The notes under the pieces: generated by a model
The model's database searches: none
What the model was told of the DNA's origin: nothing
Seen by the model: the letters and a program-made list of their open reading frames with translations, nothing else
Program-made: the position numbers and the translations under genes
Virus record (IMG/VR): IMGVR_UViG_2526164665_000039
Source: a virus
Taxonomy: Duplodnaviria > Heunggongvirae > Uroviricota > Caudoviricetes
DNA length: 8,795 nt
Strand: one strand, 5' to 3'
Shown: piece by piece, positions 2,544-4,536 of the stretch
How positions within the stretch are numbered: the stretch's first letter is position 1
How the letters are laid out: each line of letters starts with the position of its first letter

Positions 2544-2951
2544 TCAGCACCGGGTAAGTTGCATTTTTGTGATATCCGTTACGCGGAGTTTGTCCACCGG
2601 GAAAGTTCCTACTGGTGACTGCGTCAGGGTAAACGCGGCACCATCCTGACCATCAATAACCGGAATAACCTGAAGGCTGTTATTTCCTGCAAAACGGAAG
2701 GCCAGCGTATGCCATTCATTATCAAATGCACCAAAGGTTCCCAGTTTCTGGTTATTTGTTGCCACTTTTGCATTGTGGTACATCACATTCAGGTCTTTTG
2801 CGTCTGTCTGGATGTAGAACGATGCCAGCAGATTATTCCCTGCATCCCCTGTCAGGGTGACACCCTGCGGCAGAGAGGAAACCGGCCAGTAAAGCGCCAT
2901 GACATACTGGTTGCCACCGGTCGCCCGGTACTTTAAAACGACAACTGATTA
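2544..2951 (-). pseudogene. C-terminal portion of the esterase gene in a shifted frame (frameshift or sequencing error)
   Basis: This frame is open from a stop at 2949-2951 down to 2544 and overlaps the end of the 567-codon ORF. It encodes protein-like sequence (SVVVLKYRATGGNQYVMALYWPV...), whereas the tail of the long ORF after about 2950 looks non-native (CRFKVPGDRWQPVCHG...). A +1 shift is implied near 2945-2952 (ggtggtttaatcag). Confidence 0.4.
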
Positions 2952-4536
2952 AACCACCATTTTTCAGCAGTTCAGCACCAGTACCGGCATCATGATCCAG
3001 ATACCAGGATGATTTACCTGTTTCCTTGGTCAGTTTCATTGCCTTACCACCTGTGCCTCCTGCATCACTGATAATTTCAGCTTTACCGCCAGCCGGCTCC
3101 CAGCCCTGGGCTTTCAGATTTCCTTCTGACTCACTGACACGGTAAGACAGCAGTGTTGTGGTTACTGCTTCAGTTTCTGAAGGTGACGGCACTGGTGCTT
3201 CAGTTTCAGAAGATGGAACATCGGCTTTTACTGTGGTTCGCCCCGCATGAGTCAGAACTGCCGTGGCCAGACGGTCGGAAATAATCCCACGACGTGCCCA
3301 TGAACTGAAATGGCTGGCCCGGTCCGTAGATGTCCAGGTGGCGGCACTGTTACGCCACGTTGAGCCGTAATAACCAATGGATTCAATATCCGGGTCTTCT
3401 GCCGGATTGTTGGTGGGTACATTCGCGCCATTTTCATCTGTCATTAATGGGACGAAATGAATGTTTTTATCTGTTTTATTTTTGTAGCCGTCATAGATTG
3501 CCTGGTATGCCTGTTCGTTTTTCTGTTTCCAGAAATACGTGGTATCACCACAAATCCACGGAACGCCAGCAGCACTGCCACCGGTACACTGTTCCGCCTG
3601 TTCAGCCAGGTCTGCGCGGAATTTTTCCACCATCGCCAGAAACAGCGCAGAATGCTCCGTCGGCTTCGCATCAATATCAAACTCGCCCTGCATCCACACC
3701 ACAGCAAGCAGGCGGTTTTTCGGGTTCTTCGCCAGTGCCGCTTTTGTCCGGCTGATTAAGTCCTTATACAGCGGCTTATCCACACCCCAGCGGGCTGAGT
3801 CCTCTGAAGCACCCGTGCTGTCACTGTACGTGCCGTCAGCACCCGCCGTGAATGCAGAACCACCACGGCAGCAGGGAACCAGCAGAATCCCCGCATCTGC
3901 CGGAATAAACGGCAGCAGTTTTTTGGCAATGTGAAGCCCCTGACCCACGGTGCCATATTGCCCTTTAGCCACATCCGCTTTCGGGTGATTTTTTCCACTC
4001 ATATCCTGCACATCATGCAGACAGTGGTCGGCCAGAATGATGTCGTTATACTGACAGGCTTTACCTCCCGGCGTGACTGTACTGCGACGGGCTAACTGCA
4101 TAATACGCGGTTCGGGGCGGTCATATGTCTCCGGCAGTGGCAGACCTTCACCGTAAGCCATACCGTTTGACTGACCAGCAAGAACCACCACGTAATACCA
4201 GGAAGGGGAGCTGGAAGCAGTTTCATTTCCTGACGGACGGGTATGTGTTTCAGCATTATCCCAGTCTGACGGTTCAGCAGTACCGGCAACATCAGCACTT
4301 AACGGAATGACCGCACCAATACCCGCTCCGGTAATTTCCACACTCGGATCACCGGATACTGGCCTTACCCACAGGCAATCCCGTGTATTAAAACTGATGA
4401 GACAGTCAGCAAATGTCATTCCTCCTTTTGTTTCGGCCGGAGGAAAGGGAGCCTCAAGAAATGCCGCTGTACCACCGGAAACTTTAACAGTAAAGTTTCC
4501 GGGCATTGATGATAGTTGAACCCATTTGGACGTCAT
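2833..4536 (-). CDS. SASA/SGNH-family carbohydrate esterase, sialate O-acetylesterase-like (resembles prophage NanS-p), reading frame interrupted near its 3' end
   Basis: 567-codon ORF with an ATG at 4536. An LAGQSNGM block sits about 125 aa in, matching the GQSN catalytic-serine motif of SASA/DUF303 esterases. An N-terminal domain of about 120 aa and a Pro/Ser/Thr/Glu-rich linker (SETEAPVPSPSETEA) precede a C-terminal domain. The true 3' end is uncertain. Confidence 0.6.
   Translation of the reverse strand: MTSKWVQLSSMPGNFTVKVSGGTAAFLEAPFPPAETKGGMTFADCLISFNTRDCLWVRPVSGDPSVEITGAGIGAVIPLSADVAGTAEPSDWDNAETHTRPSGNETASSSPSWYYVVVLAGQSNGMAYGEGLPLPETYDRPEPRIMQLARRSTVTPGGKACQYNDIILADHCLHDVQDMSGKNHPKADVAKGQYGTVGQGLHIAKKLLPFIPADAGILLVPCCRGGSAFTAGADGTYSDSTGASEDSARWGVDKPLYKDLISRTKAALAKNPKNRLLAVVWMQGEFDIDAKPTEHSALFLAMVEKFRADLAEQAEQCTGGSAAGVPWICGDTTYFWKQKNEQAYQAIYDGYKNKTDKNIHFVPLMTDENGANVPTNNPAEDPDIESIGYYGSTWRNSAATWTSTDRASHFSSWARRGIISDRLATAVLTHAGRTTVKADVPSSETEAPVPSPSETEAVTTTLLSYRVSESEGNLKAQGWEPAGGKAEIISDAGGTGGKAMKLTKETGKSSWYLDHDAGTGAELLKNGGLISCRFKVPGDRWQPVCHGALLAGFLSAAGCHPDRGCRE

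Follow-up and report, generated by a model that had tools for sequence, protein, structure and literature searches.

A split sialate O-acetylesterase gene in an Sp18-type Mu-like prophage of Escherichia coli: the frameshifts are probably sequencing or assembly errors

Is a prophage gene that appears broken in a database record also broken in the organism? This question is raised by a NanS/NanS-p-type sialate O-acetylesterase gene in the IMG/VR record IMGVR_UViG_2526164665_000039, a stretch of 8,795 nucleotides (nt), which as a whole is called the window in the following. The gene is located on the minus strand and its frame is interrupted near the 3' end. A first description made from the sequence alone, here termed the original prediction, named a decaying moron, a sequencing error and a translationally recoded gene as explanations without ranking them. 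From a comparison with the relatives of this prophage we infer that the frameshifts are most likely sequencing or assembly artefacts and that the gene would be intact in the organism.

By sequence, the gene is an orthologue of the 679-amino-acid (aa) protein ECs_4993 of prophage Sp18 of E. coli O157:H7 Sakai and of WP_072141947, which is annotated as 'DUF6645 domain-containing protein' or 'sialate O-acetylesterase' and belongs to the NanS/NanS-p-type sialate O-acetylesterases. The gene as such is already known. It is a widely annotated accessory gene of Mu-like prophages of enterohaemorrhagic E. coli (EHEC), and for its family solved structures and assayed activity are available. Residues 1-539 and 658-679 encoded in the window are 100% identical to the reference protein WP_072141947, without a single amino acid substitution.

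The interruption itself becomes visible in the alignment with the prophage of strain 2010C-3347 (L003), to which the window is 99.9% identical over positions 261-8795, with four substitutions (6325, 7657, 7687 and 7794) and four one-base gaps. All four gaps are losses in the window and all lie within 2496-2919. Three of them are located in the gene, within 356 nt of the region encoding its lectin-like domain, and the fourth affects a T-run at the stop codon (Table 1). Three times one base is lost, therefore the original frame is resumed for the last 22 codons (4536-2500+1 = 2037 = 3 x 679). This was also seen using the intact 679-aa protein in a tblastn search, which placed residues 1-539 at 4536-2920 with 100% identity, residues ~541-658 in a second frame, and residues 658-679 at 2568-2503 in the first frame again, likewise with 100% identity. 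Two frames are used, not three.

The original prediction was correct in suspecting a second shift, since a third one-base deletion is present in the run 2564-2568, and it recognized with YPVLIDSIVVEVKKAVTE the true C-terminus, which in the intact orthologue precedes the stop at 2502-2500; what was taken for a third protein-like frame ending at 2500 is, however, the first frame. In the same way, the C-terminal domain does continue in another frame toward 2544, as the DUF6645 match within the second open reading frame (ORF2) demonstrates, but not to its end, since the last 22 codons return to the first frame. The position of the first break has to be moved by about 30 nt: it is found at codon 540 (2912-2919), whereas 2945-2952, where it had been placed, is merely the site at which the second frame opens.

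The first open reading frame (ORF1) contributes in its native part the N-terminal domain, the catalytic domain and the first ~80 aa of the lectin-like domain, and gives a Pfam SASA match with an E-value of 3.5e-12 over aa 116-313. ORF2 starts with an ATG corresponding to the native Met547, takes in most of the DUF6645 lectin-like domain and ends out of frame (KMQLTRC followed by a stop) past the third deletion.

How widespread is this broken allele? Within 5,426 complete E. coli genomes, all Sp18-type copies (159/159) carry the four extra bases, and the best identity over 2490-2935 in these genomes is 99.1%, never 100%. Eight further draft loci encode exactly the tail-fibre protein variant of the window, and a 679-aa SASA plus DUF6645 gene is present in every one of them (8/8). 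The orthologues are all 679-680 aa long; no homologue ends near 2833, where ORF1 stops, and the SASA profile match is present, so that neither of the two findings that would have spoken against the original prediction was made. A 35-mer spanning deletions 1 and 2, and therefore specific for the deleted allele, occurred in none of the contig collections (genome, viral and metagenome). The 32-mer of the intact allele was present in two IMG/VR contigs and absent from the genome contig collection, which holds one genome per species. Furthermore, an exact look-up of the ORF1 and ORF2 products in 15 billion proteins found neither. Apart from this, the other relatives differ from each other almost wholly by substitutions.

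The most informative relative is the sister contig IMGVR_UViG_2526164665_000038 (L006), the closest relative of the window. Both share the rare synonymous single-nucleotide polymorphisms at 7657, 7687 and 7794 as well as the T6 run at 2496-2501, which are lacking in the other loci. Position 1 of L006 corresponds to the last base of the window (8795), within gp47; the two are probably short contigs of drafts that break at one point, and the shared contig end suggests sister assemblies from one project. L006 is intact at all three in-gene deletion sites. It has five private one-base indels of its own (1356 TTT to TT, 1880 GG to G, 2878 AAA to AAAA, 3021 TTT to TT and 4551 +A), mostly in runs of 2-4 nt, plus one private substitution, and the two indels inside the esterase gene garble ~48 codons. 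Between window and L006, eight private indels therefore face one substitution, and since most of them are length changes of short runs, this is the signature of consensus errors and not of mutation.

The artefact is preferred because the deletions are private to the window and because the sister contig has its own scattered one-base indels. Of the three explanations in the original prediction it is the sequencing error which is favored by this. A base-calling or consensus error in the draft assembly, consisting of undercalls in short homopolymers plus one loss in a CCWGG motif, would have split one frame into ORFs of 567 and 118 aa and then led back into frame for the last 22 codons. The real gene would accordingly encode a normal 679-aa enzyme composed of the beta N-domain, the SGNH esterase and the lectin-like jelly roll.

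Where would such errors come from? The private indels lie within 356 nt in the window and within 1356-4551 in L006, and none is found in 4552-8795, the half with the structural genes. All eight private indels are located in the accessory (moron) block, a distribution which is non-random. Elsewhere in the window, the relatives are matched at 38 homopolymers of >=5 nt and at 19 further CCWGG sites, which makes the problem a local one, in the part with the highest similarity to paralogous nanS-p. Such strains harbor paralogues of the accessory block in their lambdoid prophages. Over 2700-2900 the identity to the nanS-p of an Stx2 (Shiga toxin 2) phage is 92-95%, including an exact run of 72 nt, and over 2490-2935 lambdoid paralogues reach ~85% identity, with a core of 92-95%. 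It is plausible that paralogous reads interfering in assembly or polishing caused the local errors. Another version, a near-identical repeat in which polishing failed, was supported in part only, since the paralogues are not near-identical throughout (~85% over 2490-2935).

Some points weigh against an artefact. Under a generic homopolymer-error model, errors would be expected all over the window, but they are confined to 2496-2919 (1356-4551 in L006), and this confinement needs the extra assumption that interference between paralogous prophage copies degraded the consensus. Of the three deletions, one lies outside any homopolymer. Furthermore, the artefact call was made from assembled sequences. 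A very recent, real inactivation in one strain is a less likely alternative.

Such a genuine and very recent pseudogenisation would mean that the strain truly has the three deletions, which are, after all, plainly present in the window sequence. The product would be 567 aa long and would comprise the N-domain and the entire catalytic domain, but its lectin domain would be cut after ~80 residues and all four aromatic residues of the proposed sugar-binding site would be lost; translation of ORF2 is probably not to be expected. In favor of this, prophages can dispense with accessory genes, the untouched catalytic domain makes a partly functional product conceivable, and natural C-terminal variants of NanS-p broken by insertion sequence elements are known (CTR3; PMC10462455). 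However, three independent one-base deletions would have to occur within 356 nt together with zero substitutions in the gene, in a lineage which is merely 3-4 substitutions per 8.5 kb away from its relatives; for the clustering of three events we calculated P ~5e-3. The sister L006 lacks these deletions and has different indels, the deleted allele was found nowhere else in the collections searched, and a frame-restoring net loss of 3 nt has no selective rationale once the domain is broken. Accumulated changes shared within the lineage, as expected for a gene in longer decay, are not seen either: residues 1-539 and 658-679 carry no substitution, the deletions are not present in L006, and between the sisters private indels outnumber substitutions 8:1. 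A decaying moron is therefore unlikely.

The two remaining explanations take the broken frame as the natural state. In the case of programmed recoding, ribosomes would shift near 2912-2919 and again near 2564-2568 to yield the full-length protein. The sole support for this is that the pieces add up to the complete protein, with a net shift divisible by three. However, more than 170 orthologous copies as well as the lambdoid nanS-p genes are single ORFs, two successive compensating shifts would be required, and neither a slippery heptamer nor a stop or rare-codon pause is present at the sites. Rfam revealed no frameshift element in the window. With shifts that no homologue shares, no slippery site and no Rfam match, recoding is effectively excluded. 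Alternatively, esterase and lectin domain might be made as separate proteins from two overlapping ORFs. Here, the ATG at the start of ORF2 would fit, and the NanS-p of phi24B is reportedly cleaved between catalytic and lectin domains (bioRxiv 10.64898/2026.04.10.717836). But the jelly roll (aa 459-674) is split in its middle whereas the interdomain linker is left whole, the end of ORF2 is itself out of frame, neither product is among the 15 billion proteins, and a homologue divided in this way was not found, which makes a natural two-gene arrangement highly improbable.

If the gene is intact, what does it encode? The original prediction of a GQSN-motif SASA/SGNH esterase with extra domains at both termini, located between the invertase and mom, holds true: gin as well as com and mom flank the gene, the SASA and DUF6645 profiles match, and an N-terminal domain of ~78 aa precedes the esterase. 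Matches to the Protein Data Bank (PDB) entries 3PT5 and 6YP6, which were computed with the intact 679-aa orthologue, point in the same direction and are much too strong to arise by chance (Table 1). The designation NanS-p-like applies to the catalytic and C-terminal domains, but not to the N-terminus, where the DUF1737 of lambdoid NanS-p is absent.

The catalytic domain lies wholly upstream of the frameshifts, and Gln122-Ser123 (GQSN) and His409 (RASH) are intact. These residues align with Gln18, Ser19 and His301 of NanS (Ser30/His312 in the chain numbering of 3PT5), which have been described as its catalytic residues (PMC9063846). All three in-gene deletions are inside the lectin-like domain, which is fully encoded in the window but split over two frames. 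Structure 6YP6 is the crystallized C-terminal domain of phi24B NanS-p, a lectin-like jelly roll for which carbohydrate binding has been proposed. Its aromatic residues Y510/Y515/Y540/F611 (numbering of vb_24B_21) are conserved as Y545/Y550/Y575/F646.

For NanS-p of EHEC prophages it has been shown that Neu5,9Ac2 and mucin sialoglycans are de-O-acetylated, permitting growth on them; NanS and lambdoid NanS-p are the only ones with documented esterase activity (reviewed in PMC8065619). Because of the homology to these assayed enzymes, we infer that the intact protein would likewise remove 9-O-acetyl groups from sialic acids via its catalytic domain (Gln122-Ser123, His409). In the literature, no paper was found specifically on the Sp18 or Mu-like copy of the esterase.

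Table 1. Coordinates of the esterase gene, its parts, the single-base deletions and the neighboring genes in the window.
Feature	Position	Strand	Details
Whole esterase gene	2500-4536	minus	2037 nt here vs 2040 nt intact; coding sequence 4402-6441 of L003 = 2040 nt
ORF1, 567 aa	2833-4536	minus	native residues 1-539 + 28 out-of-frame residues (RWQPVCHG...GCRE)
ORF2, 118 aa	2544-2900	minus	Pfam DUF6645 E 5.7e-61; overlaps ORF1
N-terminal ~78-aa all-beta domain	4303-4536	minus	not DUF1737; followed by Pro/Ser/Thr-rich linker, aa 79-103
NanS-like SGNH (SASA) catalytic domain, aa 104-428	3253-4227	minus	PDB 3PT5 E 5e-118
C-terminal lectin-like jelly-roll domain (DUF6645), aa 459-674	2518-3162	minus	PDB 6YP6 E 3e-112
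Deletion 1	between 2918/2919		plus strand CCAGG to CCGG; Dcm motif, coding CTG codon 540; private to window
Deletion 2	2911-2912		plus strand TTT to TT (coding AAA to AA); TTT in all relatives; private to window
Deletion 3	2564-2568		T6 to T5; T6 in all relatives; original frame restored; private to window
T-run	2496-2501		T6 vs T7 in most relatives; overlaps/abuts stop; no coding effect; common to sister L006
gin-type serine DNA invertase	4636-5196	minus	Pfam Resolvase + HTH_7; annotated in L003 and L004; directly upstream of esterase, same strand
DUF1378 gene, 3' of esterase	2172-2354	minus	53% aa identity to Stx2 phage copy
DUF826 gene, syntenic with Stx phage late region	1891-2136	minus	45% aa identity
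com	1280-1080	minus
mom, prophage right end	389-1126	minus	Pfam Mom E 4.5e-77

An extra feature of the protein is its N-terminal domain. No Pfam match was obtained for these ~78 aa, and DUF1737 did not match at E <= 0.1. A PHROGs search gave weak matches of unassigned function, with phrog_4772 at E 0.006 and phrog_9498 on the linker. AlphaFold2 predicts a six-stranded all-beta domain with a block-mean pLDDT (predicted local distance difference test) of 74-89 for residues 1-70, and a disordered Pro/Ser/Thr linker thereafter. A word-index homology search with the domain returned near-identical fragments only, and an exhaustive HMMER search with the N-terminal 105 residues against 1.84 billion representatives gave five matches. 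One of these (P0005), an Ala/Gly/Thr-rich repeat protein, looks compositional. Two others (P0004 and P0008) continue directly into the GQSN esterase motif. P0008 is 36% identical over 148 residues and is encoded at 8001-8461 of a contig of GCA_037428405.1 (L015), just downstream of gin, where it is cut by the contig end. This contig is a distant Mu-like prophage, with a gp48 29% and a gin 67% identical to those of the window. On these sequence matches, the fusion of N-domain and esterase appears to be an accessory that some Mu-like phages have conserved, and more than just a recent import from Stx phages.

The lambdoid counterpart gp84 of phi24B (NanS-p) has been reported to decorate the capsid via its DUF1737 (bioRxiv 10.64898/2026.04.10.717836). 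By analogy, Mu-like prophages might possess a NanS-type esterase lineage of their own, with an N-domain that would be a phage-type-specific anchor displaying a mucin-sialic-acid esterase on Mu-type virions; this idea is speculative and rather improbable. If true, modular virion display of this esterase would extend across unrelated phage morphotypes.

The window covers the right end of an Sp18-type Mu-like prophage of E. coli plus 260 nt of host DNA. Its minus strand carries, in this order, gp47 (cut at the window end), gp48, S, the invertible segment, gin, esterase, DUF1378, DUF826, com and mom, and the identical order is annotated in Sp18 of O157:H7 Sakai and in strain 2010C-3347. Between gin and the esterase (4636-4536), a terminator-like site was not predicted, and the esterase may be co-transcribed with gin from the gin promoter. 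The features of this prophage type are all present, namely the gp47/gp48 baseplate genes, an invertible tail-fibre segment with gin, com/mom at the right end and a variable insertion site: eight relatives occupy eight different host sites. The prophage ends at 261, and positions 1-260 are host DNA adjoining cobU, a region which matches nearly all E. coli genomes. The junction 260/261 is unique, since an insertion next to cobU is present in none of the complete E. coli genomes, which is expected for a transposing phage.

The inverted arms of the tail-fibre segment are located at 5259-5437 and 6516-6694. Over their 179 nt these arms of the 5259-6694 segment are merely 75% complementary. A single tail-fibre-assembly gene is present in the window (5701-6273, plus strand) and none 3' of S on the minus strand, which differs from the S-U / U'-S' layout of phage Mu. 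A perfect palindrome with a 12-bp stem at 1550-1579 lies inside the plus-strand ORF 1395-1802, which corresponds to phrog_26524 and ECs_4996 and is annotated as frameshifted in strain 2010C-3347; the surrounding patch 1544-1590 is the sole place where Sp18-type relatives differ by multi-base indels. Immediately 3' of the esterase stop, a hairpin CCCGCCGG...CTGGCGGG is found at 2465-2501. Its T-run is on the plus strand, by which it resembles a terminator for the opposite strand, and is T6 or T7 depending on the lineage.

For the use of the record this means that consensus errors at 2564-2568, 2911-2912 and 2918/2919 are best regarded as probable, and that the gene should be counted neither as a pseudogene nor as a candidate for recoding. 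Real deletions would mean that a single strain is without the carbohydrate-binding module in one NanS-type esterase among its several redundant ones, a loss that matters little. A wider interest lies only in the Mu-like version's N-terminal domain, given the reported capsid binding by the lambdoid DUF1737.

How does this gene compare with known systems? The closest are ECs_4993 of Sakai Sp18 and its RefSeq orthologues, which occupy the same slot (gin - esterase - DUF1378 - DUF826 - com - mom) in the same phage type and share 99.3-99.8% nucleotide identity with the window over 2300-4700. Compared to them, the window has three bases fewer in the region of the C-terminal domain and one fewer in the post-stop T-run, and its prophage lies next to cobU, whereas the ECs_4993-type relatives are found at other chromosomal sites. 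A Mu-like phage inserted in the Stx2c phage JNE082796 (L001) is 95-100% identical over most of the gene and 73-94% over 2500-3200; this drop (locus positions 3100-3900) suggests a recombination patch, which may have swapped the lectin-domain region with a lambdoid nanS-p paralogue.

More distant are the lambdoid NanS-p proteins of Stx and non-Stx prophages (933Wp42/z1466 and vb_24B_21, which is gp84 of phi24B), with which the NanS-like SGNH domain and the jelly-roll C-domain are shared. Many nanS-p genes of lambdoid Stx phages are 78-81% identical on the nucleotide level over 2511-4198 (80.7% for an Stx2-phage copy), and this homology breaks off at 4198. At the N-terminus, lambdoid NanS-p has DUF1737, while the protein of the window has the unrelated beta domain and linker. 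The genomic setting differs as well, since lambdoid nanS-p is located between stx/Q and the lysis genes of a lambdoid phage, whereas the gene of the window follows gin and precedes com/mom in a Mu-like transposable prophage of the myovirus type. Only the synteny with DUF1378 and DUF826 is kept: both genes also follow nanS-p in Stx phages, but are far more diverged than the esterase (Table 1). Finally, the chromosomal NanS (YjhS, PDB 3PT5) shares the catalytic domain with its Gln-Ser (GQSN) and His (RxSH), but is a single-domain protein of ~326 aa belonging to the nan regulon and lacks the additional domains that the prophage enzyme has at both termini.

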